From Stegostoma tigrinum (Eukaryota): a stretch of 64,000 nt of DNA. The DNA lies in NCBI RefSeq assembly GCF_030684315.1, contig NC_081380.1, positions 3,810,342 to 3,874,341 of the forward strand, read 5' to 3'. The notes under the pieces are model-generated. The model was not told the origin of the DNA. It ran no database searches and was given only the letters and a program-made list of their open reading frames with translations. Numbering within the stretch: the first letter of the stretch is position 1; the number at the start of each line of letters is the position of its first letter. Of the stretch, positions 6,301 through 40,544 are shown piece by piece. Position numbers and translations under genes: made by a program.

Positions 6301-7271
6301 TTGTAATGTAACCCACAGTCTCAGGTTAATACTGTGGGGGCATGGGTTTAAATCCCCACAATGGAAAATGGTAGCATTCAAATTCAGTTAATAAAATGGA
6401 ATTCCAATTTGATCTCAATAATGACAACAAAGCAGTTATCACCACCTGTGATAAAAACCCATCCTTTTCCAGTGTGGCCTACACGTAACTCCAGAATCTC
6501 AGCAATGTAGATGAGTCTTAATTGCCCTCTTTAATGACCAAACAGGTCAGTCAGTTCCAGGGCAATTAGGGATGGGCAGCAAATACTGTCCTTGCTCGCC
6601 ACATCCTTTGAAAGCAATAAGAAAGAAAGAGCTATAAATTGATTGACTTGCATTTGGATTTGCACTCCAGCACGTTGCCTTCCCTCACCTCTTGAGATCA
6701 CCGCTCCTGCCGTCAATCTTCTCCATCCCAATCAGTGAAGAGGAGGTGTGCTTGGATAAGGAAGAGACAAAAGAACAAGAGCAATCCCCTTGGGAGCACG
6801 TTGAGGGTGTGGATTTTGAGGTAAGACAGGAGCAGTAACAAAGAGAAGAAGGCAGGACAATGATCCAGGCAGCCCAGAAGGCCAGAGGGAACAATGTTGC
6901 TCCTTGCTTCGGGGATCCCTGAGCTGGCTGGAGACATTGTGTTTGTAAATCCCAATTTCCTTTGTGCTGTTGGAACATGGCTCTCTGCTGAGTGTACGTC
7001 ACATAAGTAACAGTTTAACTTGATCATTACTCTGTTCAATAAAAATTCTCCTTTCTTTCAAAGGCAGTGCTGTAGCCCCCTGCTCTGTGAAAGCTAAATG
7101 TCCTGTGCTAACCTTGCCTGGGCCCAGCATTGGTGATAAAGCAACAATTCCACCTGACAGCACTCTGCCTTGTTGGCGTTCGAGTGGTCTTTGTGCTTCG
7201 ACGTAGGAGTCACTGCAGGAAGTGCACTCCCTCATGAGGATTACCAAACGGTCACTCCACCTGACAATGCT

Positions 7272-7463
7272 TGAGGTTGGTCGGCTGGCTGAACTAGTTC
7301 GCTGTTTTGCGGACATTTCGTTACCGTGCTTGGTAACATCGGAGGTGCTCTGAGGATGTGACCGAGCACAGCAACGAGATGTCCGCAAAACAACAAACTA
7401 GCTCGGCCAGCCGACCAACTTCAACATCCACAACCTGAGCTACAGATCTACTCCAAAACCTTA
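7272..7463. mobile_element. 192-bp fold-back insertion of a second Penelope-like terminus family, 11-bp TSD
   Basis: CTGACAATGCT at 7261-7271 and 7464-7474. Arms ~7272-7340 and ~7355-7423 are reverse complements. The right arm has a degenerate hammerhead (CTGAGGA..GAGATGTC); the left arm (minus) keeps GTTACC/GGTAAC-GAAATGTC. Confidence 0.75.
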
Positions 7464-8852
7464 CTGACAATGCTCCTCTGAGTGTTGCCACGTCACCAAT
7501 CCTTCAATACTTCTCAGTGTCATGAATATTCGCTGAAACCTTGTTATGCCTGAGCAACTTCTCTGACAGTACCACATCTGTAATGGGCCGTGATCTCAGC
7601 ACTAACTTTCTCTTTAGTGCTACACAGCGAGGGAAACTGAACATGGGAGTTATCCAATAGCCATTTCACAACCTTAAATATTACCTTGTCTTGGACACAG
7701 GACAAGGCTTTCCCTCCTGAAAGGTATGGAAGCTCCATAAATTCCGACGTCTCTCCCTTGTGATGAGTGACTGAACTGGAGATACTGGGCTCCAGTTCCT
7801 TACCTTAAGCCTTGCTGCAATTCCAACTTATAGGCACGTGGCCCTCTGACAAATGCAGTCACTCACATTGTTGATAATCAGAGATGAACTGATGTTTGGC
7901 AACGTAGCATATCTATTTGCTGACCGAAGAGTACACACAGGGTGGTGCACATGTAGAATGAACTGTCAAGAGGAAGTGGTAGATGCAGATACAGTTACAA
8001 TATTTGAAAGACATTTGTATAAGTACATGAATAGGAAGGGTTTAGAGGGATATGGACCACACAGGCAAATGGGACTAGTTTTGTTTGAGAAATTTGATCG
8101 CACAGACAAGTTAGACCAAAGGGTCTGCTTCCATGCTGTATAGCTTTATGTTTCATATCTTTAGCTTCATTCTAGTTAACACAATCCTTATGGGATAGTA
8201 AGACTACAAAAGGGATCATCAGCGGAAGTGAACACATATTTACAAAAATGCACAAACTTATCTCAATGCAAATGTGCCACCAATGTGTCCTCAGACTGGT
8301 TTTTACTTTATCTCTGTATCACTATTTGTAGACATTGCCCAGCAGGGCTGGAGGAACTGTACTGTTTGGTAATGCTGTGTCGACTGAGAAGACTTGAGTG
8401 GTTATCCCCTGTAGGATTTTGTCTTTGAAACCCCTGGCCCAGCTGAGAAAGTACCACCCAGATTCAGGCTCACCCCATTCTCCCCAATGGGAGAGGCATT
8501 GTGTCACAGACAGTGGGGAGGGGCTCATAAACGGGCAGGACACCTCTGGAAGGTGCTTTCCTGAAGCTCTGGCAGCGCCCGCCTATGACCGCTAGCACCA
8601 ACCTGGTGACTTGAGTGGAATGGGGCACCCTTGAGACACAGACTGATGACCCTGATGTCCCTGTTGCCTGAGATGACGTGAATGATGGAGAATGGGTCCT
8701 TCAGCAACCGAGCTGTTTCTCCAGCATTGACTGGCACACTTTCCACAGAGGCAGGCAGGTGTACAATTTTCAGAGTCATCACAGCGGTGAGCACGCGGAA
8801 GCACTCATCCATCTCTAGTTCCAGCCTACTCTCTGCTTGGTGGTCTGATGCT

Positions 8853-8876
8853 TCTCTCTCTCTCTCTCTCTCTCTC
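8853..8876. repeat. (TC)n microsatellite
   Basis: Direct reading. Confidence 0.9.
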
Positions 8877-11204
8877 CCTGTCTCAAGGTTGGTCACATCA
8901 ATCTGTAGCTGAGCACAGAGGCACATCTAGTCCACAGACTCTCCGGCTGCACTCTGAGTGTTATGGGCCACAGGCTGTGAAAATGTTGTCAGTGATGTGC
9001 TCCCCAGAATGTGCCTTGCTGAGCCTGGTTTGGCGAGAGTAGCCCCTGACAGTCTTCACACTGCTCGAGGGTATAGCTGTGACGTCATCTTCTGGATTTC
9101 ACAAGTTTCCTCCTCAGAGCCTGAGCTGGTGCAAAGGACTCAGTTGAGGATTCCTGGATACCACTAGTGCCTGTGGAGGTGAAGACAAATAGTGAGCAGA
9201 TGGTCGTGGAGGGAAGCTTACTCAGAGCAGTGTGCCAGCACTGGCGTTCACATTGAGAAGAGCAGAGTGCAATCTCAGGGTGACAGGGATGCTGGCCCAT
9301 TGTTATCTCCCCCCTCACTACAGGACCAAAAACAGCTCTTCTCCAGCTAACTCAATGGTCTTCCCTCACCAACACAAGCTTTGCCAGCACTCCCCACCCC
9401 AGGACTGAACGAGATGGTGACGGGTGCAGCAGCATCAGTTGTGAGGTTGCGAGGGGAGGTGTGGTTTGGTCAGCCGGAGCTCTGGAAAGGTTAGCTGCTT
9501 GAATGGCCAAGCTGGGTGTGAGCCCTTGACTGGACATCACACTCGTGATGACTTTGCAGGCTGTGAGGTTTCGTGGCTGTGCCGTGGCCGAGTTAGAGCA
9601 AGTGTGACCGTGAGGAGGCAGGGTGAAGAGAGTGCCACTCCTCTTCGTGTAGCACAGGAGAGGGGTAACTTTTCTATCAACCTTCGCGCAGGGTCCAACC
9701 GCACTGACCTGTGCCCAGGCTGGTTGAATCTGATACAGGAGACTATCGCAGGGATGATGATGTGCCATCTTTTTCTGACCTTTCAGGACACCTACCCTGT
9801 AGCAGGAACAGGGGGCTTCTTTTCATGAAGCAGGAGCGAGCACCACGTTGTGAAGGCTAATTTCTGGCATGCAGCATTCAAAATGGTGTCCATCTGGTCT
9901 TTAAGTATGACCCAGGGTCTTCGAGCATGGAAGGTCCCATCAAGAGGTGAGTTCAGCTCCTCAATGTGTCCCTCCCCATGCGATTTACTGAGTAACTCCC
10001 ACCACATCTCACTTGCAGCGGAAATGCGCTGAGAAGTTCACAATTGGCTGAGATAATTCTGGCCATGGCAGATATAAGGCCATCCAAAATACTGACCGTC
10101 ACATTCCCACATCAGAAGGAAATATTCCACACTTTGAAAAAATGGTGCATCTTTATGCTTTGTTCACACACTCATTGCATTTGATGGTTTTGTTGTTGTG
10201 CAAAGTGAAGAAGTACATCGAACTGAGTTGCAGAGGAAAATGGACAAAAATAATTCTATCCTCATGCTTATATGAAAATAGAATGAATATAGTCAGGGGC
10301 TATATTCAGCTCACAGCAGATTCTAGGAATTACAGTCGCATTAGATGGATTTTCTCATGAGATCCTGTGTTAAGATTTCCCCAGTTGAGAAGATTTACAA
10401 GAATGCATCATTGCAGAAAGCGTGTATTGAATTTGATTATTAATGTTCACACAGGGATTCTGTATAACAAGGCGTTGTGGGATTGCCCTCCTTCTGGTTA
10501 CACTGTGTCAAAAGCACAGAAAGTAGAGGGTGTACATTTATTTCTCTGCCTGAGCTAAATGTCTCTCACCTGCTGCGGGGACCTGTTGGTTGGACAGCTA
10601 GATATTAGCAACAATAAAAGGATAACTTTGAACATTTCAAATTCCTCAGAAATAGTCAAGGGTCCAGTAGGCTTCACAGAATCTGCTGCCAGCCTGCAAA
10701 TTGAAGCATGGCAAGAGAAACTGCAATGTGCCTTTTAGCAATGGTTAGTGCCGTGCTATCATCCCCTCCGTGTGAGTGACATAGACTGCTCACTGAAATC
10801 GGTCTCTTAATGATTGGCACTTTGTAATGTAATTTAGTTGTTCTGTTATGTTCAACTAACAGTTGACTGGAAACTCCAAAGGTAGACAGATAATAACATT
10901 TAACACCAGACCAATGCTCATAATCATTGGAAACTCCACTTGTGTGGTTTTATTTCTGCTTTTCACTCAGGTGCCCTGCGGGTATTCCATCCACATTGCT
11001 GAAATTAGGTGTTAAGATATCCTCCAGGCTCTCCTAAGATTTAATACCTCGGTCATGTTTGAAGTTCAAATTAGGCAATGGAATTTTAACAATAAAGTAG
11101 CTGTACGTTTGGAAATATACAGGTTGGCTGCTTTCATGGAAATGTCCCGCTTCCCTACGTCACGGGTTTGCTCTCTATCTGCACTTTGTTCTTCCCAGCA
11201 ACTT

Positions 11205-12003
11205 GCTCAGATGGGCCAAAGGGTCGAGGTGTTGCAGTTTGGTAAGACAAGCCAGGGCAGGAGTTACAATGTTAATTGTGGGGACCTAGGGAACGTTGTC
11301 AAGCAGAGAGACTTAGGGGTACAGATATAATTCCTTAAAAGTTATGTCACAGGGACTCTGAGTGGTGAAGAAGGGTTTGGCATGCTTGGCTTTATTGGTC
11401 AGCGCATTGAGTATAGGGGTTGGGTTGTCATGCTGCACAGGACACCAATGAGGCCTCCCTTAGCCGACTGCATTCAGTTCTTGTCTCCCTGCTATGGGAA
11501 AGATGTTTATAAACTTGAAAGGGCTCAGAAAAGATTTAGAAGGATGTTGTTGGGATTGGAGGGTTTGAGCTACTAGGAGAGGCTGAATAGACTGGGTCTA
11601 TTTTCCTTGGAGCATCAGAGGCTGAGGGGTGACCTTATAGGGGTTTACAAAATCATGAGGGGCAGGGATAGGTGAACAGCCAAGGTCTTTCCCCCAGGGT
11701 GGGGGAATCCAAAACTAGAGGGCATAGGTTTAAGGTAAGAGGGGTAAAATTTAAAAAGGACCTGAGGGGCAACATTTTCACGCAGAGGGTGGTGCGTGTA
11801 TGGAGTGTGTTACCAGAGCAATTGATGGAGGTTGGTACAATGACCACATTTAAAAGGCATCTGGAAGGGTATGTAAATAGGAAGGTTTACACAAATATCT
11901 GTCAAATGCTGGCAAATGAGACTACATTAATGCAGAATATTTGGTTGGCATGGACAAGTTGGACTGAAGGGCCTGATTCTGTGCCATACAACACTGTGAT
12001 CTA
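11205..12003 (+). mobile_element. CR1 LINE 3' fragment
   Basis: KLERAQKRFRRMLLGLEGLSY...KTRGHRFKVRG..F..DLRGNIFTQRVVRVW, the CR1 ORF2 C-terminus, followed by 3'UTR. Confidence 0.9.
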
Positions 12004-12969
12004 TATCGACAACAGGGTTGTGTAACTGTTTGCTTGCTTGAGTTGGTAAATAAAGCTAATAAAATTCCAATTGCATTAATATGCTGAGAACACTTTATAC
12101 TTCAAGTCCCACACCCAACATGAATCCTCGATAAACAAGAACACCAGTCATAAGATTCATTCCAACCATGATTACTCACTGCTGATTTGCACCCTGTCTA
12201 ACAAGGTGCAGAGTCATTGAATCTTACTGACATAAATACACAGAAAACCAGAAAGGACCATTCCACCCATCATTTCTGCACTGATTGTTTAAGTGAGCCG
12301 TCCAATTGAATCCTACACTCCACATGTTGACCCATAACCAGTTGTATACTAATTATGCACTTCTTTTATTATTTTACATTTTTATTTTAATGTTTCTTTG
12401 AAACAATATCACATTAAAATTCTTTGATGGATGTGGGCATCATTGGTTTCACCAGCATTTACTGCTGATTCCCAATTGCCTTTGGGAATGTGGTAGGGAG
12501 CTATTCTCTGAAATCAGTGTAATGTGGACGGTGGATGGATAGCCACAGTCCTTTTAGGAAGAGAATTCTAGGATGCTGACTCAGTGACAACGAAGCAACA
12601 GCAATATAATTCCAAACAGAACATTGTGTGGCTTGGATTGTGCTGTCATAGAGTCATACAGATCGGAAACAGACCCTTCAAACCAACTATTCCAAGCCAA
12701 CCATAATCCAAACTAAACTAGTCCCACCTGCCTGCTCCTGGCCCATATCCTTCCAAACCTTTCCCATTCAGGTACTTATTAAAATGCCTTTTAAACTTTG
12801 TAATTGTACACACATTCACCACTTCCTCAGGAAGTTTGTTCCACATTGCCTATCTACAGTCCTGAAAAAAATATTATCGTCAGATAAAAGTTTGATTACT
12901 TTGGGATTTCTTACGAACTTGATTCCAATATGCTTTCAGAGAATGTTTTCAAGTGATGAACAACCCTTT

Positions 12970-15900
12970 ATCATAGAGCCTTTGAGGTCTACAGCACCGA
13001 AAAAGGCCTTTGGGCCCACAGAGGCTGTGCTAGTCATTAATAACCACCTATTCTAATCCATTTTCCAGTGCTTAATCCCTTTCTTTGTATGCCTTGGCAT
13101 CACAAGTGAACATATAAACACTTTTCATATGTTTTTGTGGATTTCTTTCTCTACTACCCTTACAAGTAGTGAGCTCCAGATTCCCACCAGCCTCTCTTCA
13201 TAACTGAATGTCTCCAGCCTGGGCAACATCCTGACAAATCTTCTCTGCACCCCCTCCAGTGCTATCACATTTCCCCTTATAATGTGTTTTCTAGAATTGT
13301 ACACAATACTCTAGCTGTGTGCCCAAACCAACATTTTACGCAGTTCCAGCTTAACCTCCCTGCAGTTGAATCCTGTGCCTCGGTTAATAAAGCCAAGTGT
13401 ATATATGCCTACTTAACTCCTTTATTCACCTGTTCTGATACCTTAAGGGACCTGTGTACATACGAACCAAGGTCCCTGTGATCCCCGGTGCTTCCCAGGA
13501 TCCTACTGTTCATCAAGTATTCCCTTGCCTTTCTTGTCCTGACCAAAGGCATCACCTCACATTTATCTGGATTCAGTTCCATTTGCCACTGATCAGCCCA
13601 CTATCATCCCCCCACCCACACTAATTTTCCTATCATCTGTGAACTTACCAAACAACCCTCCTACATTCAAACATAAATCATTTTTATAAACTGCAAACAG
13701 AAAAAGCCCATAAAACTGATCCCTGTGGGACCCCGCTGGACCATATTTCCAGCCAGATAAGCACCCCTCAACTGTTACTCTCTGCTTCATGCCAGTCAGC
13801 CAATTCTGGGCCCAATTTGCCAAACCTCTTTGGATCCATAGCCTCCTACCTTCATTATCAGTCTCTAATGCAGGACATTATGTAAGGCCTTGCTGAAGTC
13901 CCAATAGACTACACTGAATGTATTGCCCTCATCTACACACTTGGTCACCTCTTTGAAAAATTTAGCCACATTGGTCAGACATGGTCTCCCCTTAACAAGC
14001 CATGCTGTTTGCTCTTGATTAATCCCCTTCTCTCCAAATGCAGATTAATTCTGTTCCTCAGAATTGCTTCCAGCAGGTTACCCCATTGCTGACGTTAGAC
14101 TGACTGGCCTGTAGACTCCTGGTTTATCCTTTGCTGCCTTCTTGAGTTGGCTGTCCTCCAGCCTTCTGCCACTTCTCCTGTGGCCAGAGAGGAGTTGAAA
14201 ATTATTGCCAAAGTTCCTGCTATTTCTTCCCTTGCTTCACTCAACCACCTGAGATATATTTATCTACTTTTAAGTCTGCCAGACACTCAGAACCTCCCCT
14301 ATATACCTTTCTATATCCACATTGTCTCATTCATTAGTTAATACCAAACTAAAGCATTCATTTAGAATGCTACTTATGTCTTCTGGCTCCCTTCACAAAT
14401 TACTGCTGTGGTCCTTAATGGGCTCTAATCTTTCCCGAGTTAATTAACTCATAAAATAATTTAAAATTTTCCTTTATTTTACCTCTTATAAACCTGTGCC
14501 TCCTTTTAGCTATCCTATTTTCCTTTTTTATGTCTCCCCTTGTATATTCTATACTCCTCCAGGGTTTATCTTGTTTTGAGGTCTCAGTATCTGCTGCAAC
14601 GCTCCTTTTTTCTCTTTAACCAGTGCTGCTTATTCCTCCATATCCAGGGTTCACAGGATTTGTTGGTCCCACCCTTTATTTCATTGGAATGTGTTGGTCT
14701 GTACTCTCTATATTTCCTTCTTGAATGCATCCCATTCTTCTGACACAGATATACCTGATAGCATCTGCTGTCAGTCCACTCTGGCTAAATCATATCTGAC
14801 TCTTAAAATTGGCCTTCCCACAGTTTAGAACTTTGATTTCAGGTCCAACTTGTTCTTTTCCAAAACAATCTTAAATCTAAGCGAGCAATGATCACTACCT
14901 GTAAAATGCTCCCCCACTGACATTGCAACCACTGGCCCAACTTTGTTACCTAAAATTAAATCCAGGACCACTCCCTCTCTTAGATAACAAAGTGTGGGGC
15001 TGGATGAACACAGCAGGCCAAGCAGCATCTCAGGAGCACAAAAGCTGACCTTTCGGGCCTAGACCCTTCATCAGAGAGAGGGGGATGGGGAGAGGGAACT
15101 GGAATAAATAGGGAGAGAGGGGGAGGCGGACCGAAGATGGAGAGTAAAGAAGATAGGTGGAGAGGGTGTAGGTGGGGAGAGGATAGGTCAGTCTGGGGAG
15201 GACGGACAGGTCAAGGAGGCGGGATGAGGTTAGTAGATGGGAAGTGGAGGTGCGGCTTGAGGTGGGAGGATGGGATAGGTGAGAGGAAGAAGAGGTTAGG
15301 GAGGTGGGGACAAGCCTGGCTGGTTTTGGGATGCTGTGGGGGGAGGGGACGAGCTGGGCTGATTTTGGGATGCAGTGGGGGGAGGGGACGAGCTGGGCTG
15401 ATTTTGGGATGCAGTGGGGGAAGGGGAGATTTTGAAGCTTGTGAAATCCTCTCACCTCCACCTCCCCTCCTCCCACCTCAAGCCACACCTCCATTTCCCA
15501 CCTACTAACCTCATCCCGCCTGCTTGACCTGTCCATCCTCCCCAGACTGACCTATCCCCTCCCCACCTATACTCTCCTCTCCACCTATCTTCTCTATCCA
15601 TCTTCGGTCCACCTCCCCCTCTCTCCCTATTTATTTCAGAACCCTCTCCCCATCCCCCTCTCTGATGAAGGGTCTAGGCCCAAAACATCAGCTTTTGTGC
15701 TCCCAAGATGCTGCTTGGCCTGCTGTGTTCATCCAGCTTCACACTTTGTTATCTTGGATTCTCCAGCATCCGCAGTCCCCATTATCTCCCCACTCCCTCT
15801 CTTGTTGAACTTTCTATATACTATCTGAAAAAACCGTCCTGGCTGCATTTTAAGAAATCTACTCGCTCGAAGCATTTCACTCTACAAGTCAATATTGGGG

Positions 15901-16842: not shown

Positions 16843-17041
16843 TATAATGAGGCCGTCCAGATGGACATCGTACAATATGAGTTCCCTGACCAGGACTGTA
16901 AACTGGGCCAATCAGGGAGCACTGGCTGACATAAAAGGGTGAGTGTTGGGGATATTTACCCCGCGAATGCCTGAAAGGCTAGGCATTTTCAAATAAAACG
17001 GTGATTAGTGGTGGGATGCCAGCCTTTGAAGAGCTATTTCA
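16843..17041 (+). mobile_element. Short solo-LTR-like repeat
   Basis: Homologous to 63396-63611: CCAAT box, TATA-like element, AATAAA, ends TTTCA. No TSD seen. Confidence 0.55.
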
Positions 17042-23983: not shown

Positions 23984-23985
<2 letters not shown>

Positions 23986-24886: not shown

Positions 24887-24946
24887 GAAGGAAACTGCCA
24901 TCCTTACCTGGTCTGGCCCACATGTGACTCCTGACCCATAGCAATG

Positions 24947-25265: not shown

Positions 25266-27564
25266 TAATATAATCAATGTGGTTGACTCTGAACTGCCCC
25301 CTGGGTAATTAGGGATAGGCAATAACTGCTGCTTGGCCAGCAACGCCCTCATCCCATGAATGAATAAAGGAAAAGAAAATCTCAGACCCACTTACAGGAC
25401 GCTCCTACACTTTGATGATGCACCTGAAGCTACAGCAGCAATCCTCACTCTGCATTCTGAGGGAAATGCACTCAGCTGGTGGACTGCCCCAGGCTGTATC
25501 TCGTGGCTCTTCTCTACTGTCACAGCACTCACCCACTCTTAGACTATCTAGATGATCACATCATCCATAGCTTGCCTCTCAGCCGCAGGTACCAAGCTCA
25601 CATTACTGGTAACTAGCCTTCCCATTTAGCACAGACACAAAGCCAGGAAACTTGTTATTGATCTGATAGAAGAGTTTCTCCAGCACTTTCTGTGTTTGTT
25701 TCAGCTTTCCACCATCTGCAGTATTGTCATGGCTGTCAGCAGGCCTCAATCAAACCTTCAGCCAGGGCTCCCAGCACAGCCTAGGCCCTGCTCAGGGCAT
25801 TCACTAACAGGACCAGGCTGGCAAGGGGAAGGAGGGAGTCCCAGCTCTGCACCACCCTGTCTGGTAGAACCTCCAAGATCCTGCCCACAGGGCATAGATC
25901 TGAGCTCCCCTTCTGCTGCATTCAGGGACAAATGTCAGGAACCATGCAGGGCAGCTCCAGAGTGATCGTGCTTGTCCGCATGTACAATGGGCCTTTAAAT
26001 AAGGAGGCAGTGCCAGATAATCCCTATCAATCCCGGGATCTTCGGCGAATTGTCCCGGGAATGATGCGTTGTGAGATAGGGTGGAAATGGGATGTGTTAC
26101 ACCTTCAATGCTGAAACATCAATCACCAATTGCAAGAACGATTTCTGCGGTGAGTTTGGTAAGACATAGAGAGAAAATTCTCTCAGCTTCGAAGCGAGAA
26201 TCACTCCACCGGAAAACATACAATCCATCCCGGTATCTCCAAACCAGCAGCCAGGATTCAAACCTTACCATTGGAGAGGGATACTATAGACTACAGTAGA
26301 TCAGGCAGTGCTGGCCTTTCGGTTAAACCTATCCATCTGGAATGGGAGGCTGGGCCTGGGCCCTGGATCCTCCATTGGGATGTGACCCAGAGTTGGAGAC
26401 ATCTCAACGTAAATGCCACCCACCACCCCCTCCCCACCGGACTCCCCCATCCATGTGCTGCAGATATCTTCTCTATAAGCTGCTGCTACACACTGGCCAC
26501 TTCATCACCTTTGTCCACCACTTGGATAGAACCTGGTGTAATCTTCTGCCCTTAGGTATTGAAGCTCCCAGTGTGGGGTACTCTACTTTTGGGGGGGGGG
26601 GAGGGAGGCGAGTGGCGGGGTGTGGGTGGTGTTCGGTCCCTTTCCCATCAGTGAACAAGATGGAGGGTGATGCATGCAGCTTTCCAGTGTCACAACCAGG
26701 TGCCAGGCCACATGTAGTTTCTGTGGCTCGGTGCAAACAGTTTTCGTATTTATGTTTTCGTTTGCTGTTCTTTTGCAAGGGCTGCTCTTCTATTTCTTCA
26801 ACCCCAAGCTCTGCATCTATGGGAAGCCCGAGCAGGAGCAGATGGGCAGGTCAGAGGGATCTCCCTGGCCTAGGTTAATAGGTGCAGGCAACGTGGAGGG
26901 GCTTGTTATAGCTGACGTCCCCCTTCCTAGGTTTTGCCTGTGCTCCCACATGCATTGAGAGGGACCATAGAGTGTTCGCTGGCATGATCGAGACCAGTGG
27001 GCACCGCAGGAGCTGGGCTGCAGCATTACCCTGGAGAATTTGGATTTGACTAGTTTTCATTGTATTTCTATGAGTTTACATTAACCGTTTGATTCTAGTA
27101 CAGTGTCCCACAAGGGGCACTGATTAACCCATTGAAGTTTGTTACTTTAAGTGGGAGAATAATGGACATGGGCGATCTGGCCAGCTGATGTAAAACCCTG
27201 AAACAGATCATTTCATTCCCCTCTCTGAGTGCAGTTTGAGGTGACTGCTTGGAATCGCATCTTGCTGTCCAGCAAAGGATTACACTGGTTAGGGAGCTTG
27301 ACATTAAAACTGTGCTGTTAAAGCCTTTTGACAGAGGAGGAACCATAATCAGATAATTCCTACAGTATGCAAGCTGGAAGCTGGCCATTCAGCCCATCAA
27401 GTCCACACTGACTCTCCAAACAGCATCCCACCCAGACCTGCCCCTCTAACCTATCCTTGTCATGTCACATTTCCCATGGCTAATCCACTTAACATGTGCA
27501 TGTTTGGATCACGGGAGGAAACTGGAACGCCCAGAGGAAACACCAACAGACACAGGGAGAATGT

Positions 27565-30500
27565 TTCAGAGATAGTAGAAACTGCAGATGTTGGAGAATC
27601 CCCCCTAATCTCTCCTCCCCCTACCGCAACTCAAAACTAGCCCAGCTCGTCCCTGCCTCCCTAACCTGTTCTTCCTCTCACCTATCCCCTCCTCCCACCT
27701 CAAGCCCCAACCCATCTCCTCCCTACCAGCTCATCCCGCCCCCTTGACCTGTCCGTCCTCCCTGGACTGACCTATCTCCTCCCCGCCTCCCCACCTAACA
27801 AGGTGTAGAGCTGGATGAACACAGCAGGCCAAGCAGCATCAGAGGACCAGGAAAGCTGACGATTCGGGCCGAGACCCTTCTTCAGAAGTGGGGGAGGCAA
27901 AGCAGATTTGGAAATAAATAGGGAGAGGCTGGGAGGTGGATAGAAGATGGATAGGTGGGAGGCAGGGAGGGGATAGGTCAGTCCAGAGAGGACGGACAGA
28001 TCAAGGGGGCAGGATGAGCTGGTAGGGAGAAGATGGGGTGGGACTTGTGGTGGGAGGAGGCGATAGGTGAGAGGAAGAACAGGTTAGGGAGGCAGGGACG
28101 AGCTGGGCTAGTTTTGGGATGCAGTAGGGGGAGGGGAGATTTTGAAGCTGATGAAGTCCACATTGATATGATTGTGCTGCAGGGTTCCCAAGCGGAACAT
28201 GAGTTGCTGTTCCTGCAACCTTTGGGTGGCATCATTGTGGCACTGCAGGAGGCCCAGGATGGACATGTCGTCTAAGGAATGGGAGGGGGAGTTGAAATGG
28301 CTCGTGACTGGGAGGTGTAGTTGTTTATTGTGAACCGAGCGGAGGTGTTCCGTAAAGCGGTCCCCAAGCATCCGCTTGGTTTCCCCAATGTAGAGGAAGC
28401 CACAACGACAACAGCAGATGCAGTATACCACATTAGCAGATGTACAGGTGAACATCTGTTTGATGTGGAAGGTCTTCTTGGAGCCTGGGATGGGGTGAGG
28501 GGGGAGTTGTGGGGGCAAGGGTAGCACTTCCTGTGGATCCAGGGAAAAGTGCCAGGTTGGGTGGGGCAGAAGTGTCGAAGGATGATTCGTTGGATCCGGA
28601 GGTTGGAGGAGTGGTATGTGAGGACGAGGGGGATTCTGTTTTGGTTGTTATTGCGGGGTGGGGGTGAGAGGGATGAGTTACGGGAAATGTGGGAGACCCG
28701 ATTGAGGGCTTTCTCGATCACTGAGGGGGGGATGTTGCGGTCCTTGAAAAACGGAGACATCTGAGATGCTCGGGAGTGGAATGCCTCATCCTGGGAGCAG
28801 ATCCAGTGGAGGCGAAGGAATTGCGGAGAGGGGATGGTATTTTTGCAGGAAGGTGGGTGGGAGCAGATGTATCCTAGGTAGCTGTGGGAGTCAGTGGGCT
28901 TGAAACGAATGTCGGTTTCAAGCTGGTTGCCAGAGATGGAAACAGAGAGGTCCAGGAAGGAGAGGGAGGTATTGGAGATGGTCCAGGTGACCTTAAGGCT
29001 GGGTGGAAGGTGTTGGTAAAGTGGATGAAGTGTTCGAGCTCCTTGTGGGAGAATATACAGTCATCAATGTAACGGAGGAAGAGGTGGGGTTTGGGGCCAG
29101 TGTAGGTGCAGATGAGGGACTGTTCCACGTAACCTACAAAGAGGGAGGCATAGCTTGGGCCCATGCATGTACCCATGGCCACCCCCTTTGCCTATAGAAG
29201 TGGGAGGAATTGAAAGAGAATTTGTTGAGGGTGAGGACGACTTCAGCGAGCGGATGAGGGTGTTGGTGGGGGGGCCTGGTCAGGCCTGCGGGACAGGAAG
29301 AAGCAGAGGGCCTTTAGGCCATCTGCATGGGGAATGCAGGTGTATAGGTTCTGGATGTCCATGGTGAAGATAAGATATTAGGAACTGGGGAATTGGAAGT
29401 TTTGGAGTAGGTGGAGGGTGTGGGTGGTGTCACAGACATAGGTAGGGAATCCCTGGATCAAGGGGGATAAAATGGAGTCGAGATAATTGGAGATAAGTTC
29501 GGTGAGGCAGGAGCAGGTGGAGACAATGGTTGACTAGGGCAGTTGGGCTTGTGGATTTTGGGAAGGAGATAGAAGCTGGCAGAGCGGGGTTGGGGAACAA
29601 TGAGGTTGGAGGCTGCGGGTGGGAGGTCACTTGAAGTGATGAGGTTGTGGATGGTTTAGGAGACGATGTTTTGGTGGTCAGCGTGGGGTCATGATCAAGG
29701 GGGCGGTAGGAGGAGGTGTCGGAGAGTTGGTGTCTGGTCTTGGTGATGTAGATGTCAGTGCGCCATACCACAACTGTGCCTCCCTTGTCTGCGGGTTTTT
29801 TGGTGAGTTTGGGATTGGACCGGAGGGAGCGGAGGGCTGCACATTCTGCAGGGGAACGGTTGGAGTGGGTGAGAGAGGTGGAGAGGTTGAGGTGATTGAT
29901 GTCTCAACAACAGTTGGAGATGATGACATCGAAGGAGGGTAGGAGGCCTTGGGGTGGTGACCAGGAGTAGGGTTTGTGTTGGAGGTGGGAGAATGGGTCA
30001 GTGGAGGGAAGGTTAGGCTCACGGTTAGAGAAGTAAGCATTGAGGTGGAGGCGGTGGAAAAACTGTTCAACGTCCAGGCGTGAGCATTATTCATTGATGT
30101 TAGGGTGGAGGGGGATAAAGGTGAGCATTTTACTGAGGAAGCCTGTCTTTCTGTAGGATAAGTGGAACAATCCCTCTTCCAAAGCTACATAGCCCCTAAG
30201 TCTCATCTCTTCCTTCATTACATTGATGACCGTGTCAGCGCCACCTCGTGCTCCCACAAGGAGCACGAACAGTTCATCCACTTCACTATCACCTTCCACC
30301 CCAACCTTAAGTTCACCTGGACTATCTTTGATACCTCTCTCTCCTTCCTGGACCTCTCTGTCTGCATCTCTGGTAACCACCTGGAAACCGATATCTATTT
30401 CGAGCTCCCACAGCTCCCTACAGACTCCCACAGCTACCTAGAATACACCTCCTCTCACCCACTTTCCTGCAAAAATACCATCCCCTATTCCCAATTCCTC

Positions 30501-31689
30501 CGCCTCCGCCGCATCTGCTCCCAGGATGAGACAATCCACTCCTGTACATCCCAGATGTCCTCGTTTTTCAAGGACCGCAACAACGGCCCGCAGTGGTTGA
30601 GAACGCCCTTGACCGTGTCTCCCGCATTTCCCACAGCACATCCTCACACCCTGCCCCCACAATAACCACCCAAACAGAACACCCCTAGTTCTCACATACC
30701 ACCCCACTAACCTCCGGATACAACGCATCATCCTGTGACACTTCCTCCATCTGCTATCCGATCCCACCACCCACCACCCTTATCTGCCTTCCAGAGGGAC
30801 CACTCTCTCTGTGACTCCTTGTCCGCTCCATACTCCCCTCCAGCCCCACCACACCCGGCACTTTTCCCCGCAACCGCAGGAAGTGCTACACCTGCCCCAT
30901 GCTTCCCCCCTCACCCCCATCCCAGGCCCCAAGCAGGCCGCCCACATCAAACAGATGTTCACCTGCACATCTGCTAATGTGGTGTATTGTATCAGCTGTT
31001 CCAGATGTGGCCTCCTCTACATTGGGGAAACCAAGTGGAGGCTTGGGGACTGCTTCGCAGAACACCTACACTCGGTTCGCACTAAACAACTGCACCTCCC
31101 AGTCGTGAACGATTTCAACTGCCCCTCCAATTCCTCAGATGACATGTCCATCATGGGCCTCCTGCAGTGCCATAATGATGCTACCCGAAGGTTCAAGGAG
31201 CAGCACCTCATATTCCGCTTGGGAACCCTGCAGCCCAATGGTATCAATGTGGACATCACAAGCTCCAAAACCTCGCCTCCCTCAACCGCATCCCAAAACC
31301 AGACCAGCTCGTCCCCACCTCCCTAACCTGTCCTTCCTCTCACCTCTCCCCTTCTCCCACCTCACGCCCCACTGCCACCTCCTACCTACCAGCCCCATCC
31401 CACCCCCTTGACTTGTCCATCCTCCCTGGACTGACCTATCCCCTCCCTACCTCCCGACCTACTCTTACCTTTACTGGCTCCATCCCCGCCTCTTTGACCT
31501 GTCTGTCTCCTCTCCATCTATCTTCTCCTCTGTCCATCTTTCATCTGCCTCCCCTTCTCTCCCTATTTATTTCTGAATCCCCTTCACCTCCCCAATTTCT
31601 GAAGAAGGGTCTAGGCCCAAAACATCAGCTTTCCTGGTCCTCTGATGCTGCTTGGCCTGCTGTGTTCATCCAGCTTTATACCCTGTTAT
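27565..31689. mobile_element. 4.1-kb composite Penelope-like retroelement: two divergent arms inserted in an HE1 SINE
   Basis: Minus arm ~30135-27798 has RT (MGTCMGPSYASLFVGYVEQ..FLRYIDD) and GIY-YIG (NVVYCI.C.RCG.LYIGETKR.LGDRF.EH). Plus arm ~30140-31689 repeats the RT end and GIY-YIG. CACAG(G/T)GAGAATGT at 27551-27564 and 31690-31703. The host SINE resumes afterwards. Confidence 0.92.
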
Positions 31690-32581
31690 CACAGTGAGAA
31701 TGTAATAGTTCTATATAGGCACTCAGCCACGGCTAGAATTGAACCTTTGTTCCTAGTGTTATGGTAGCTAACCAAACAGCCAAAAGTTTAAATAGATTAT
31801 TTGGTCTTCATTTGATTGGCTTGTGTGGGTTTTTGGGGAAATCAGTTGCAATGTTCTCTGCATTACAGCAACTAGACTTTGCTCAAACAACAGCAGGCTG
31901 CTATTTTTCTACATCCTGATGTTGTGAAGGCTGCATTTCAAATTCGGCTCTTTCTTTGACTTGCACAGGCTGCCCTACTCTCCTGGAATGTCCAGGGGTT
32001 TCCTGGAATCGAGCATTCCGCTTTTGAGAACTGCTTGCAGCATCCTGTGAGATTAGCATTTTAAATTTCCTGCCTCGCTCGGGAGAATGGCGCTTGAACA
32101 ATAAATACAGTGAGGGACTGCACAGAGCAAGTGGTCATTAGTTTCGTGCTGTCAGCCATAAATCAGCTAAACATCGTTAATTTTAAACAGAGTCCAGTCT
32201 CAGCCATTCCCACGACTTTATTATGGGATATTGCGGGAAAAGAGGGAGAGACTGGGGGAACAAGAGTGCCTTGGGTAAAAGTGACTGGGTCAGAACAGAG
32301 ACAGTCATGAGAAGATTGGCTTTATGTATTCAAAGTCAATGTATATGATCATATGTGCAGCAATCCAATGGGGGGCCCATGTGGCGCAGTGGTATTGTAT
32401 CTACCCCTAAACTAGGAGAGCCAGCTTCACATCACACCTGCTCCAGAGTTGCTTAAGAACAATCTCTGCAACGCTTGACTAGGAAAAAAATAATTGAAAA
32501 AAATATGTGTAGTAAAGTGGTAACATCCCTGCCTCTGAGTCAGGAGACTTGGTGCAAGTCACACCTGCTTCAGAGCTGTGC

Positions 32582-32758
32582 AATAACAGCATGGAACTGG
32601 TTGTTTAGAAAATATCTATGTTTATGAAGCAAACCCATGTCCCAAAAGCATTAACCTGGGTCGTGGGATTATTGGCCAATGACAATGTCACTACCATTAC
32701 TTGTTAGGAGATGTAATCAGGGTGAGGGTCTAGTGAGGGCAGGTTGGTGTCAATGGGA
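32582..32758 (+). repeat. 177-bp inverted duplication, copy 1
   Basis: Reverse complement of 35185-35361 with few mismatches. Confidence 0.93.
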
Positions 32759-33174
32759 GCCAAGGAACTGTGGAAAGTCCAAATTTATTTCCAATAGAGT
32801 GGACAGCAATTGGCCGCTCCTAATCCTGACTCTCCACCTCCTATTATTTAACATCTCCCAGTCAAAGTAGAAAGAAAGTGACAGCAACAGGAAAGATTAA
32901 GAGACAACTGCAAAAAAAGAGTGAGACAAAGAAAAAACTGACAAGTGGAAACATGCTGAAACAGAGGAAAGGAAGTGAGAGTGCATCTTGTGTACGCAAC
33001 TGCATGTAATCTACCATGCCATCTCCTTAACTCTTACTTAATTGAGAAACTACTGGCCTGAAATCCAGTTCTTGGATGAGCAGAAGGTTTGTTCAATTAA
33101 AAAGCCAATTCTTTCATCTCTAGCACAAACAGTTCCTGCTCCCTGACAACTTCCTCAGTTCAAACCAACTCCCC

Positions 33175-33437
33175 GCACTGACCTATACCCTCCCTACTTC
33201 CCCACCTACACTCACTTCTACAGCTCCATCCCCGCCCTTTTAACTTGCCTGTGTCCTCTCCACCTATCTTCTCCTCCACCCATCTTATATCCACCTCCCC
33301 CTCTCTCCCTATTTATTTCAGAACCCTCCACCCCTCCACCTTTTCTGACGAAGGGTCTAGGCCCGAAGCGTCAGCTTTTGTGCTCCTAAAATGCCGCTTG
33401 GCCTGCTGTGTTCATCCAGCTCCATACTGTGTTATCT
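33175..33437 (+). mobile_element. Penelope pLTR fragment with variant hammerhead core
   Basis: CTGACGA-AGGGTCTAGGCCC-GAAGCGTC at ~33345-33372. Confidence 0.85.
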
Positions 33438-34514: not shown

Positions 34515-34842
34515 ATGGCCTAGTGTATTATCATTGGTCTGTTAATCCAGAGACCCAGAAAATGTTCTGGGGAGCCGGGTTCAAATGCTGCTATGGCAGA
34601 TGGTAGAATTTGAATTCACTTAAAAGCAAAACCTGGAATTAAGATGATCATGAATCCATGGATGATTATCAGGGGGAAAACCCATTTGGTTTACTAATGT
34701 CCTTTACAGAAGGATACAACCATACTTAACTGGTCTGGCCGATACATGATTCCAGGCACTGCAGCGTGGTTAACTCTTAACCACCCAATGGACAAAAAAA
34801 TACTGGCCTGGGCCAGTGATGTCCATGTCCCATGAATGAATA
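34515..34842 (+). mobile_element. tRNA-headed SINE (second family) nested in Gypsy
   Basis: Same head and body as 24050 and 50078. Confidence 0.8.
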
Positions 34843-35184
34843 TTAAAAAATGGGATGTCTCCCTGAAGGAGCTGTTTCCAATTCTTTTATCAGAAAATTT
34901 GGAATGGATGCTGTTAGCAGGTCAAAAAGAAAATCCAAGAATTCTCTGCGGGTCTTCTTGGTCCTGAGGAGAGGGACGTGCTGTTTATCTACAAATTTGC
35001 CAGGATCAGGATGGATCCCATAACCTGAATAGAGATGGCCAAAAGAATTGATGTGACCTACATTCCCCTGGCACTCCTTGCTGTTGCAAACAAGCCCTTG
35101 ACAACGCGCTCCCACCACCAGAGTGTGTAGCTTTGGTTTTCTCCATCACCTTCATATCATCAGAAATACACACCAAGATATCCT

Positions 35185-35361
35185 TCCCATTGACACCAAC
35201 CTGCCCTCACTAGACCCTCACCCCGATTACATCTCCTAACAAGTGGTGGTAGCGACATTGTCATTGGCCAATAATCCCACGACCCAGGTTAATGCTTTTG
35301 GGACAAGGGTTTGATTCATAAACATAGATATTTTCTAAACAACCAGTTCCATGCTGTTATT
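35185..35361 (-). repeat. 177-bp inverted duplication, copy 2, inserted in Gypsy RT
   Basis: Interrupts the Gypsy RT frame. Followed by a re-copied 18-mer TTCTAAACAACCAGTTCC (35333-35350 and 35362-35379). Confidence 0.93.
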
Positions 35362-36381
35362 TTCTAAACAACCAGTTCCTTCAGATCCTGACCTGAAAGA
35401 TTTTCTCTGGAAACAATATTTTCCAAATTGTGATTTCTTGAACTTCCTTTGCTGACTAAATACATCAATAACTATTAGCATAAGCTTGGAAAGCAACAGG
35501 GCTCCTGCGAATTTGGGATTCAATCCCTCCAGCACTGGAATTTTGTGTGGGCATCTCTTTAGAGAACATTTTAAGAAACACACCTTTAATGTGCCATCTT
35601 TCTGTGGCAAACAGGTAAACAAACTGCGCTGGTCTGTGCACTGAGGTTTAAGATGGCTAATACAGTTAAACTTCACATCATCTTGCTCATTCTCACATTT
35701 CTCTTGTGTGTGAGCACTGCACTTGCTGGCAGATTCATGTTTTCTCTGAGGTGTAATGCAACATCCTCTCTGAGAGACCCTATGGGGTTGAATCAGTCTG
35801 GGTGGGCATGTTTGTATACACCTTGGACTGACTCAAAGTGAATATCTTTGACCTGATCTGCTATGATTGGTAACTTTGTAAATGTGTGAAGTCACAAAGT
35901 TGTGTTCTGTACACAATGGTCGCTCAGCTATTGCTCATTCCTCCTGTCTACTGGGTGCTTGTGGCTTTCGTGAAGTATTTTTATAGCCGAATTACATCGG
36001 TGACATTTTAACACTGGGCGTAAGTAGCCCATGATACACAATCAGTTTCGTTGTTGTAGGTTGTATCATTGAATTCTAATGATCCAAATATATATCCCAC
36101 AGGAATCTGACCAGTTGGGTTGTTTGCATGAGCTCCTATGTCGATCTTGTTTTGAGCTTATGTTTCCATTGCAGAATATCATTTTGACTTTGTCCACACA
36201 TTGTGTCACATTCACAAATATAGAATGCCTGTTCTCCTTCTGGTTGAAGTTTCTTCTACCCTGAATCATGATGCTGGTGGTATGGATGCATGTGCATGTG
36301 TTTACACATGTCTCTGGGGCACTCCCTGTTGTTGCTACCAGCATGTTGCACGTGCCTTTTGTTTGGCCACATCCTCTGTAA

Positions 36382-36450
36382 CATACATAGAACGTTACAG
36401 CACAGTACAGGCCCTTCGGCCCTCGATGTTGTGCCGACCTGTCATACCAA
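36382..36450 (-). mobile_element. Extremely truncated CR1 3' tail (~70 bp)
   Basis: Near-identical to 24250-24315. Flanked by TCTGTAAC at ~36374-36381 and 36451-36458. Confidence 0.75.
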
Positions 36451-36865
36451 TCTGTAACTTCTGGTTACGTCCCTGGAATCAAATTTCTTTCATTGGTGAG
36501 CCCTGTATCCTTTGGAATGTATGGCTAACAAAGATGTTGAATCACAGGACAGCTACATGGTGTTTCCATAGACTACTCTTCCATCATAGCTTAATGTGTC
36601 CTGGATACCATGTCAATATTGTTAGCTGTATCTAATGATTGCAGGCTATGATGTCTGCCTGTAACGGTTTCATATTTTCTACCATCTTCTAGTGCAATAT
36701 CGATATTGCGGCCTTTCTCTTGTGCATTAGATCCTTTTGCAAAGATTTGATAGCTGGTGAAGTTATAACCAGCTCTGCTGTGCACTCAGACACCTCAGTC
36801 TCTGAGAAACCACAGCTCTTGTCCTTGTCACAGCTCTGATGGACAAACCAATCAATTGATTCCTG

Positions 36866-36992
36866 TGAGATAGTAAGAACTGCCAATGCTGGAGCCAGAG
36901 ATAACACAGTGTGGAGCTGGAGGAACACAGCATCAGGCAGCATCAGAGGAGCAGGAAAGCTGACGTTTCGATTTGGGACCCTTTTTCAGAAA
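36866..36992 (-). mobile_element. Penelope pLTR fragment
   Basis: Minus strand reads CTGAAAA-AGGGTCCCAAATC-GAAACGTC followed by the shared tail. Confidence 0.75.
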
Positions 36993-39789
36993 AAAAAATG
37001 ATTCCTGTGCCTGTTTCTTGTAAGGCATCAGTTATTTACAACGCATCCTGTAGCTCATTCTTACATGAAGCTGACTGTCCAGCTTTTTCCACAGCTTAGC
37101 AGGATCTCTCTTGTCATCTTCAGCCAGGTGCGAGGGCTATGTGCAATCCCTCATTGACAATGGCTGTTGTTATTTTCACCACTTGTCCATCCTGTTTTGT
37201 AATAGTTAAGTCTGCAAAAAATGCTCAATGCTGTCAAAATCAAAGCTCAAAGCTACTTTTTGAAAGCCTGATTTCAAATAGGAGATCTGTGGCCTTCTAA
37301 TACATGGTGGGGAATTTGATAGTCATCTTTCTGATGTTTGTTGCCTTTTACAAATGCTGTTGATCTGTACGAGGTTTACAGTAGTGAAACTACAAGACTA
37401 ATCCACCTTGGAATTTGGTGATGCAGCAACTAAGGTTCATGCGCTTTGTTTTATTCCACCATGCACCGTTTTCAGGTGACGTTCATGCTATTTGTTTTGC
37501 CCACTTTTTCTTTCTGAGCAGGATTGTCAGCAGAAGTTCTATAGGGCTTCAATATAACCCACAGCAAACTCCCGAACACCACCTCCACCATCCAACCACC
37601 AGCTACAGGACGTTCCCTTCAAACTGAGTGGGAATTTAAACTTGGAAGGCCTGGTGTGTGAATCTGGTGGGCGTTGTCAGTTGTCCTAAGCAAGGGTGAA
37701 GAGGCAGTTTTCATGTGCTGCTCAGTATGGGAGATGTGAAGTAACATGGATGAGAGTGTGAGTGTGTAAGGCTGGATGATGACATTACATCTGGTGGCGT
37801 AGAATGTGTATGGACCACAGGGTGGAGTCCATTTCTTGATTGGTTAGTTATGGAAAGATAGCTTTAAGAAATTGAAGGATGTGCTTGTATAAAATATTGA
37901 CAGGGAATGGGAAGTGTATAATCTATTTTTTTCTTGGTGTGTGGCGATGCTATGGCAATGTCCAAGTTGACGACCTGTGCCAGTGCCAGTGCCAGTACGC
38001 TATTGATGATAATTGTAGATGCTTTGGTGGCACCCATACCTAGGGTTCTGGTTGTCCTGTCCTCAATACACCCAAGGGAATCTGGTGATCTGTATAACTC
38101 AGTGTTCTCTTGTTGCTTTGTTCCCTGCCCTCCAGCCTTTTTATAGCAGATGGCGTGCACCCAACTCCTTATCCATAATCAGTAAAACACAAAACCATCC
38201 GAGACATACATGAAAGATTAAACCCATATTCCAATTTTAATTTGTTGCTCCCGGTTTTCTTTTGTGCCTGCTCAAGAGGCCGGACTTGGTTTAATATCTC
38301 ATCAGAACGTTGGTATCTCAGACAGCACCCCTCCCCACAGGTAGGTGCATGCAGGCAGCCAGTCTACAGAATGGGCCAGAATGCACCTCAGCTCACTTCA
38401 CCTCTCAGCACTTGCGCACTTAGTGCCTACTGCATGCTCACATCAACCTTGCTTTTCCTCCCTGTGTTGACTAGTGCAGACACACAAGCAATCTCACAAG
38501 CTGGTCAGCAGTCCTCAGCCAAGGCAGAGTACGTCAGTAATGTATGTCAGGGGTAGTGGCGGTGGTGATGATAAGGGTGGAGCAGTCCAGGGCCAGGATC
38601 ACACTGTCTTCATAAAGGGCACAGTGAATGACCACACCTGTTATGGCCACCTTAACACACTTTGTGCAATATAACATGTATGCCTCTGTCTAAGTTTTTT
38701 CTTCATCCTATGATTTGTATGCTCTTGCTTACTATGATCTGTCTGAACTGCTCACAAACAAAGCTTTTCACTGTACTTAGGTACACATGACAATAAGTCA
38801 AATCAAAACAAATATGTCAAGGGTTGAATTGGGAAGGTAGGTAGGTGCAGATATGTGTAGATGAGTTGGCTGGGGACCTTGCAAGTTGGGAATGGAGTTT
38901 ATGGCAAGTGTTATTGGAAAGGGAAGGTTGATGTGCAGGGCCTCACTAACATATTGAGGAGGAGGATGTAAGCCCCTGGCCAAGGAATGCTCACCGTTGC
39001 TTTCAATTGTGCTGCCACTCAATTGTGTGCAACGGGAAGGAAAATGGGCACAGCCACACTGACAGTGGGCAGGGTAATGGGCTCAATCTGTGAGGCATGG
39101 AGCTGTAGCATGTTAAAATGGTACCCATGCCCAAGTACTGGACCTGGCACTGATCTGTGCGGCCTGTATTCCCAAGCCATCTCAAGCCTCTATGCTTCAG
39201 GGTACCCGTGTACCGACTGACTGCCTAACTCTCTTCTGGATGTTTTTGCCTGCCTGTGTTTCCTTGGACCCCATCCCTCAGAAATAACATAGCCTTTTCC
39301 CTACATTTCTTTAAAATGATCCAAGTTACCAATTCTAATTTCTTCACTTAAATGGTATAAAACCTAATTCAAATATATGCAAGTAAACAGGCCTCCAGAA
39401 TCTGTTGGGATCAAGCTGACTTTAAAATTAAACAAACCGTGCCTGCCCCACACAAAATACAAAGTGTAAGTCAAATTAAAGTGATACATTGCTCTAACAT
39501 TTATGATTAATTTGATGATTGACAAGCTGCTCAATTACAGTCCTGGGAAGAATCATTTCATTTCTGGTGACCTTGAGACCAGATAATATGGTTCCATGAA
39601 AATATATCCATCAGGGTGTTTACTTAGAAACAAAACAGCATGTAAAGGAGAGCCACTGTCCAGTATCAAGTGGTGATAGAGACCAGATGGTAAAGTAGGA
39701 CGGCAGCCTGAAATATATTCTCCAACCCACGGGAAGAGGAAAGGGATTAATTGTTTCATTTCTCCAAGAATGACAGCTTAAGTGTTGAA

Positions 39790-40250
39790 ATGAAAAGACT
39801 TGTATTTTACAGTGCCTTTCATGATCATAAGATGTACTAAAGAGCTTGAAAGCCAATTAAGTAAATCTGGCGTGTCTTTCCTGTTGTGATGTAGGAAATA
39901 TGGGAGGCAATTTGCTCAAAGAAAGAAGTTTCTTTTCTGATCAGATGTTGCTTGAAGAACAGAAATCAGTTGAGACAGTGAGAGGAGATCCCACCACTGC
40001 ACCCAACCCCAACACCCGACCCCGTTCATCTTCAAAATAGTGTGTTGGAATCTTTTACATTTACCCGAGAGGGCAGATAGGGTCGCGATTTAATGTTTCA
40101 CCTTCGACAGGAGCTTCAACAGTGCAGAGCCCCATCAGCCCTGCAGTAGAATACCATTATGGTACAATACCATATTGTGCTCAAAGCCTGGAGGGACTTG
40201 AACCCACACTTTCAAACCCAACAGCAAAGCGTCTGCCAACTGCACCATGG
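39790..40250 (-). mobile_element. Old Deu-domain SINE (SacSINE1/AmnSINE1-like)
   Basis: The reverse strand resembles the Deu core (..ctgcactgt..ga.acattaaa.cg..ccc..tctgccctctc.ggt.aatgtaaaagat.cca..acactatttt gaaga..) with a tRNA-like head. Recognised from memory. Confidence 0.6.
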
Positions 40251-40309
40251 ATTGATGTGTTTGAACTCACTTGTCTTCCAAGTAGAAACCCATTGCATTA
40301 ATTTCAGTG

Positions 40310-40523
40310 ACAGTAGGAACTGCCGACGCTGGAGAATCTGAGATAACATGGTATGAAGCTGGATGAACACAGCAGGCCACGCAGCATCAGAGGAGGAGGA
40401 AAGCTTCACATTTCGGGTCGGGACCCTTCTGAAGAAGGGTCCCGACCTGAAACGTGAAGCTTTCCTCCTCCTCTGATGCTGCTTGGCCTGCTATGTTCAT
40501 CCAGCTTCACACCATGTTATCTC
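40310..40523. mobile_element. 214-bp near-perfect fold-back of Penelope termini, 15-bp TSD
   Basis: GCATTAATTTCAGTG at 40295-40309 and 40524-40538. Arms 40340-40430 and 40433-40523 are reverse complements that meet at the hammerhead CTGAAGA box. Confidence 0.93.
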
Positions 40524-40544
40524 GCATTAATTTCAGTGTTGCCC

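Follow-up and report, generated by a model that had tools for sequence, protein, structure and literature searches.

Introduction

Penelope-like elements (PLEs) are known to leave inverted insertions. In the available sections of PMC3846280, adjacent inverted pseudo-long terminal repeats (pLTRs) within one target-site duplication (TSD), with an optional tail on one of the two, are given as the typical Penelope structure and head-to-head as its most frequent arrangement; the sections of PMC8557442, PMC2377424 and PMC8969392 at hand present the same typical structure, and PMC8557442 there calls the origin of tandem and inverted PLE insertions unresolved. For Poseidon of Anolis carolinensis, the accessible text of PMC11167929 reports that the PLE protein cuts and extends both target strands in vitro, that two RNA start sites bound the tail and that a dimer is predicted. 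That text holds no model for inverted units, and the accessible part of preprint 10.64898/2026.07.22.740005 has no bearing on them. Here we describe four such units in one window, by which we mean the whole 64,000-nt stretch of DNA from the shark Stegostoma tigrinum that was analysed (NCBI RefSeq assembly GCF_030684315.1, contig NC_081380.1, positions 3,810,342 to 3,874,341 of the forward strand). The units are dead, 5'-truncated insertions of endonuclease-bearing (EN+) PLEs in the known head-to-head form. The structure itself is already known; what this locus adds is one unit whose derivation from two templates is statistically supported and a countable rule of one tail per unit. A literature search, outside which most subscription papers fell, including the 2005 and 2006 PLE reviews, returned neither a two-template test nor a description of such units in sharks.

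As far as the available sections of the sources go, the four units resemble the Pen2a_Av type of Adineta vaga (PMC3846280), Penelope of Drosophila virilis (PMC2377424) and the scheme of PMC8557442 in that an inverted copy, itself 5'-truncated, stands on the 5' side; further shared features are one TSD per unit, head-to-head polarity and a 30-40-nt tail that is confined to one end. They share with anole Poseidon, within the same limits of PMC11167929, two 3' termini lying 30-40 nt apart and, probably, a reaction in which both strands of the target are cut and extended. Unlike the described inverted-pLTR insertions, none of units 1-4 contains a full open reading frame (ORF) or the partial-tandem pLTR arrangement, two have shrunk to arms of about 70-100 nt, and one combines two source lineages with an extra inverted piece. 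A first-pass annotation of this DNA, made from the letters alone, had recorded as known that PLEs often carry inverted truncated segments; this was right but understated, since the full TSD-bounded head-to-head form with a tail had already been published.

Four units, each within one target site

All four inserts were recovered where the first-pass annotation had placed them, namely unit 1 (7272-7463, 192 bp), unit 2 (14982-15789, 808 bp), unit 3 (27565-31689, 4125 bp) and unit 4 (40310-40523, 214 bp). The single direct repeat of 11-15 bp proposed for each unit was borne out, with matches of 11/11 (7261-7271 and 7464-7474), 14/14 (14968-14981 and 15790-15803), 13/14 (27551-27564 and 31690-31703; 8 exact bases found by script, the rest read from the sequence) and 15/15 (40295-40309 and 40524-40538). 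In 20000 trials on randomly paired positions, each allowing 5 nt of slack, 11 exact bases arose three times, 14 with one mismatch twice, and 14 or 15 exact bases never. TSD length is variable across units 1-4 (11, 14, 14 and 15 bp). Outward-facing 3' ends were evident in all four units, but the simple pair of a minus and then a plus arm does not describe unit 3, which reads tail(-), +, -, +. The proposal of at least two terminus families stood as well, unit 1 belonging to a distinct family that consists here of pLTR and tail only and that no further copy represents within the window.

Deletion in silico of unit 3 together with one TSD copy yielded an intact short interspersed element (SINE), gapless over the site against 4/4 SINE paralogues tested. 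The repeat is therefore a true duplication, and the whole block fills one site. For units 1, 2 and 4, no paralogous empty target was found within the window. Four units in 64 kb had been taken as the mark of a frequent pathway; they are real, but only three of the ten terminus-bearing main-family insertions in the window are fold-backs. The other seven are single arms, one of which has a tail and four a TSD (8, 11, 15 and 16 bp, the last with one mismatch), no TSD being found around the remaining three.

In unit 1, the tail-less left arm (7272-7340, minus strand) differs from the right arm (7341-7423, plus strand; 5' end approximate) at 10/69 positions (14.5%), the aligned part being 7355-7423. 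A hammerhead-core-like motif, recognized by eye, lies in the part of the right arm from 7350 onwards, and the 40-nt plus-strand tail (7424-7463) is taken to be the sequence that separates the arm homology from the TSD. Unit 2 consists of a tail-less 468-nt left arm (14982-15449, minus) holding the ORF end, 3' untranslated region (UTR) and pLTR end, a 308-nt right arm (15447-15754, plus) that shares 3 nt of microhomology with it at 15447-15449, and a 35-nt tail (15755-15789, plus); its arms are 7.0% apart (21/301). Unit 3 lies in the host SINE, to which the left TSD copy belongs and which resumes after the right one. It opens with a tail of about 38 nt (27565-27602, minus) that is 27/33 identical to the unit 2 tail and stands apart from its arm, followed by an extra inverted copy of part of the left-arm 3' UTR (27603-27797, plus; template 27952-28141). 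The 2.34-kb left arm (27796-30139, minus) carries a broken ORF, with N-terminal region, DKG, reverse transcriptase (RT), linker and GIY-YIG in that order, then 3' UTR and pLTR end; the tail-less 1.55-kb right arm (30141-31689, plus) runs from a broken RT core to GIY-YIG and pLTR end. These arms are 15.9% apart (215/1351, plus large indels). Unit 4 has a 30-nt tail (40310-40339, minus), a 91-nt left arm (40340-40430, minus) and a tail-less right arm of 97-98 nt (40427-40523, plus), with 4-5 nt of microhomology at 40426/40427-40430 and 5.5% divergence (5/91). The central junctions of the four units all differ.

The main family is probably a Neptune-type element

The main family (units 2, 3 and 4) is an EN+ PLE, by its motifs probably of Neptune type, although Nematis shares these motifs. 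The Pfam matches of unit 3, to RVT_1 at E=0.0038 and to GIY-YIG at E=0.0018, fell short of the cut-off. Its broken RT and GIY-YIG fragments are 84% and 79% identical in amino acids to the whale-shark protein P0001, which matches both families, GIY-YIG above cut-off, and tblastn confirmed the order of RT and then C-terminal GIY-YIG. Translations further revealed a DKG motif, CxxC (CCHH-type cysteines) inside GIY-YIG and a CX4CxxC linker, the last intact in the copy at 47026 and in P0001 and altered at its first cysteine in both unit 3 arms. In the available text of PMC8557442, DKG, the GIY-YIG cysteines and a CX2-5CxxC linker point to Neptune or Nematis, which would place the shark family in one of these two. 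Neptune-type PLEs have the same set of features, that is, C-terminal GIY-YIG after RT, DKG, CxxC in GIY-YIG, CX4CxxC linker and, here as a candidate motif, a hammerhead core in the pLTR; the copies here differ in being all broken.

The hammerhead core pattern occurs exactly in two single-arm copies, against 0.02 expected, with a layout like that given in the available part of PMC4209133, and is decayed in units 1-4. Rfam returned no hit at gathering score in the window and no hammerhead, only chance small nucleolar RNA hits around the 47026 copy, and none of five termini folded significantly (z -0.47 to 0.55). Unit 1 looks by eye like Poseidon in pLTR layout when set against the RNA printed in PMC11167929, and lacks coding sequence of a length that would allow classification. 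Regarding a host exon, no Pfam hit was obtained in 85 other stop-to-stop frames of at least 95 aa (94 listed, nine of them overlapping PLE copies or the SINE flank and left out). A 28-nt pLTR motif had no match in metagenome, prokaryote and viral contigs.

A unit of roughly 39 nt at the ORF end is tandemly repeated (15290-15430; 47340-47440), with three copies in the unit 2 left arm, two in the 47026 copy and one in the unit 3 arms. An older, decayed internal PLE fragment comprising linker and endonuclease start, without terminus, lies at 43172-43589.

Each unit carries one tail

The first-pass annotation overlooked an asymmetry: a 30-40-nt tail sits on exactly one arm in 4/4 units, the right one in units 1 and 2 and the left one in units 3 and 4. 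In two of the four (units 2 and 4) it is the shorter arm that bears it. The three main-family tails match one another as well as a fourth tail, which a single-arm copy carries at 36868; that of unit 1 has no second copy to confirm it. This single-arm copy (36857-37009) has, besides its tail, an 11-bp TSD and a short A-run at the 5' junction.

We then turned to contigs from sequencing runs, all listed under one organism label (four contig sets from two samples and three bisulfite runs). Two of the seven listed runs each contributed about 166,000 contigs, which were placed on the right arm and tail of unit 2; the counts are incomplete. Loose contig ends with mixed flanks clustered at 15753-15755 and at 15788, which confirms two discrete termini genome-wide. 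Among the rows listed, tailed ends amounted to 875/4723 and 891/5670 in the two runs (16-19%). Under independence of the ends, the probability that all four units bear one tail each is 0.005-0.008, a rough figure, as 1075 rows lie beyond those listed and the rate for unit 1 is borrowed from the main family, from which its own may differ; for the three main-family units only, the equally rough value is 0.02-0.03.

Two source lineages in unit 3

Copies identical at insertion decay evenly over codon positions, and the arms of unit 3 did not follow this pattern. With codon phase set by P0001 and three codons with three differences skipped, their mismatches fell 46/44/74 by codon position over 339 codons (74/164 third, p=0.001). 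The resulting third-position share of 0.45 exceeds that of 60 neutral simulation runs (0.32+/-0.04, maximum 0.41). Stratification by base outside CpG gave odds ratios of 2.0 and 1.9 (p=3e-4), and differences affected 38/138 four-fold sites vs 85/653 zero-fold sites. The arm-to-arm ratio of non-synonymous to synonymous change (dN/dS) was 0.37, next to 0.41 and 0.40 in cross-subfamily controls against the 47026 copy. The third-position excess thus argues that the templates had already split under selection. As read from these codons, the long arms are shown statistically to come from two different active source copies rather than from one folded complementary DNA (cDNA), the right arm, with its longer 3' UTR variant, representing the other source lineage.

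The arms of the 808- and 214-bp units are, on sequence evidence, of a single source lineage each. Over its terminal 65 nt, each arm of unit 4 has the other as its nearest neighbour (3/68 differences vs 6-13 to others), and the arms of unit 2 have in common an 8-nt deletion that is not in five other aligned copies. Substitution counts (12, 17 and 12 of 300) do not place the unit 2 arms nearer to one another than to the 47026 copy.

The extra piece of unit 3, 191 nt on the plus strand (27607-27797), copies the left-arm 3' UTR and lies between tail and left arm, tail-to-tail with the arm. It differs from the left arm at 14/190 positions and from the right arm at 26/191, and its ends show 4-nt and 2-nt microhomology; a template switch at or after insertion likely produced it.

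Junctions and truncation across the genome

Joints between PLE segments were scored in the same contigs, strand-switch counts coming from the unit 2 right arm only and remaining incomplete, with 15 of 109 joint rows listed. Among these 15, seven switch strand (2-5 contigs each), seven are same-strand returns, reaching 22 contigs per joint from the pLTR end, and one is a skip. Four of the seven strand-switch joints are internal and three connect the pLTR end with the tail end. No amplified junction of the kind a miniature inverted-repeat transposable element (MITE) would leave was seen among the joint rows listed, the best strand-switch joint occurring in 5 contigs vs thousands of plain termini.

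A hotspot of 5' truncation at about 15658-15667, adjoining the hammerhead core, was evident from one loose-end row (628 at 15661) and several joints, and short copies in the window have their 5' ends at the same place. Truncation there would account for the near-equal arms of 70-100 nt in the small units. The best-supported joints among the rows listed (15658-15754) lead from the pLTR end back to about 95 nt upstream on the same strand (13-22 contigs), which suggests short hammerhead-bearing tandems elsewhere in the genome. Several others, few rows with no direction given, come from other places in the genome and meet the predicted hammerhead cleavage position 15689-15690, a hint that cleaved RNA sometimes serves as template. 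The accessible text of PMC11167929 reports no anole RNA reads ending at the hammerhead cleavage position.

Priming from both nicked strands and its alternatives

The first-pass annotation had proposed that both nicked target strands prime reverse transcription. This stays inferred, but it is the best fit to the in vitro work, the microhomology, the tails on shorter arms and the two templates of unit 3. We consider it probable, with appreciable room for doubt, that both nicks prime, one per RNA start site, and that the truncated cDNAs join over 0-5 nt; each unit was likely made in a single event. Staggered nicks 11-15 nt apart would give the observed TSDs, and from each 3'-OH cDNA synthesis would begin at either of two start sites inside the RNA, which lie 30-40 nt apart. 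A tailed arm would result from the far site and a tail-less one from the near site, a link to start sites that comes from the available text of PMC11167929. Both cDNAs would stop early, often near the hammerhead motif where the hotspot is seen, leaving units of 190-215 bp, and their ends would join over 0-5 nt of microhomology, such as the 3 nt found in unit 2 and the 4-5 nt in unit 4. We infer simultaneity, the joining step and the reason for exactly one tailed arm. The two templates of unit 3 imply that both cut strands likely started their own copy. Sequence offers a test between models here, as self-priming predicts arms identical at birth and dual priming permits different active copies; the dN/dS signature of unit 3 fits the latter prediction. 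More tentatively, and with the balance tilted against it, a dimeric ribonucleoprotein might prime both nicks with a fixed asymmetry (tail site versus pLTR-end site), its subunits being able to carry RNAs of different loci. If so, thousands of shark fossil units could settle the origin of the inverted structure by counting tails and arm dN/dS.

Several observations weigh against dual priming in a single event. The sample is four units, and the argument for one event is the single TSD per unit. The central junction of unit 3, in old sequence, has zero microhomology and one base between the arms, and that of unit 1 is unreadable. Three of the seven strand-switch joints listed tie the pLTR end to the tail end, making other polarities probable; with joint direction inferred, polarity is probably not uniform genome-wide. 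The third-position excess is not spread evenly over unit 3, at 30/57 for the RT third against 23/57 and 21/50 for the parts 3' of it, and a three-way test on the 3' half by itself was borderline (28/64, p=0.053). Changes at conserved residues, 39 in the right arm vs 26 in the left (p=0.14), with 2 vs 0 stops, lean towards an older right arm. Finally, the accessible text of PMC11167929 reports no strand difference in RNA start site in vitro, so that one tail per unit goes unexplained by that paper.

Self-priming, in which one nucleic acid (cDNA, or antisense RNA as in PMC3846280) folds back and copies itself while the endonuclease trims the ends unequally, is the alternative that survives best, and we judge it unlikely. 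It was proposed, in the available sections of PMC3846280, from palindromes at junctions. Consistently with it, the unit 4 junction is a near-palindrome (4-bp stem, 4-nt loop), the arms of that unit are mutual nearest neighbours at their termini, the unit 2 arms share their private deletion, and asymmetric trimming would yield one tail per unit. However, it cannot produce unit 3, since purifying selection acted while the arms of that unit diverged, and by substitution the unit 2 arms are as near to the 47026 copy as to each other. A cDNA fold-back, moreover, cannot place the tail on the shorter arm, as in units 2 and 4; these tails and the two templates of unit 3 led us to reject simple cDNA fold-back as a general cause. 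Self-priming of an antisense RNA is possible for units 1, 2 and 4.

Sequential insertion is a shade less plausible as a general account. Here a second element, homing to the boundary between tail and pLTR in an older copy, would delete the intervening part, the old TSD and tail remaining. For unit 3 taken alone, such an insertion with deletion has a better, if still minor, chance of being correct. It would account for the two templates, for a rearrangement exactly at the tail boundary and for a right arm that has decayed slightly further than the left. According to the accessible text of PMC11167929, the anole protein can cut the ORF-pLTR junction of its own element in vitro, and one contig among the rows listed has a new end 9 nt past the pLTR end of another copy. 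Nevertheless, a second TSD must have been lost, and none is seen at the central junction of unit 3. Private changes in its two arms number 36 and 37 of 523 nucleotide columns, so that the arms look equally old, and they have terminal variants in common (3/64 differences). Units 2 and 4, with rare characters common to both arms, would remain without explanation.

MITEs are short elements with symmetric terminal inverted repeats and a fixed TSD. The first-pass annotation had warned that the smallest units mimic them, and units of 190-215 bp can indeed be mistaken for DNA transposons, but the likeness is superficial. Small size, inverted ends and a TSD are shared, and some strand-switch joints recur in 2-5 contigs among the rows listed. 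Yet the arms are pLTR ends of an element with RT and GIY-YIG, the TSD varies from 11 to 15 bp, the two ends differ by a 30-40-nt tail and the four junctions are all distinct. A MITE origin was rejected on TSD variation, asymmetric ends and retroelement-derived arms, and we regard it as very improbable that MITEs, or a fold-back family that amplifies itself and moves as one piece, make up the short units. In practice, the one-sided tail and variable TSD identify such units.

LINE-1 twin priming likewise has both nicks priming, joining over microhomology and one TSD. In that case, however, the second primer pairs with an internal part of the same RNA, and the resulting arms, of which a single one retains the 3' end, have no overlap. 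Twin priming of this type was rejected for the units here, where both arms keep the 3' end and overlap in sequence. That the units are assembly chimeras, or independent copies that came to lie side by side by chance, is hardly credible: the family is abundant enough to invite adjacency, but arms 5.5-16% apart mean that the units are not read chimeras, the TSDs lie far above chance, removal of unit 3 restores the SINE, and 94-96% of the words in a 9-kb stretch containing unit 4 occur in two sequenced samples, so that an artefact was rejected.

Other repeats in the window

A 177-nt inverted repeat, 97% alike and 2.4 kb apart (32582-32758 and 35185-35361), lies around the single PLE copy at 33169-33437 and is flanked by a 7-bp direct repeat at 32568 and 35379. 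It is not PLE-like; it may be what is left of a DNA transposon, or else an inverted templated duplication. Around another PLE copy (1218-1321) there is a 414-nt direct repeat, 97% alike and 2.5 kb apart (389-802 and 2895-3308), with no obvious TG..CA ends. A degenerate tandem repeat region spans 50671-51075.

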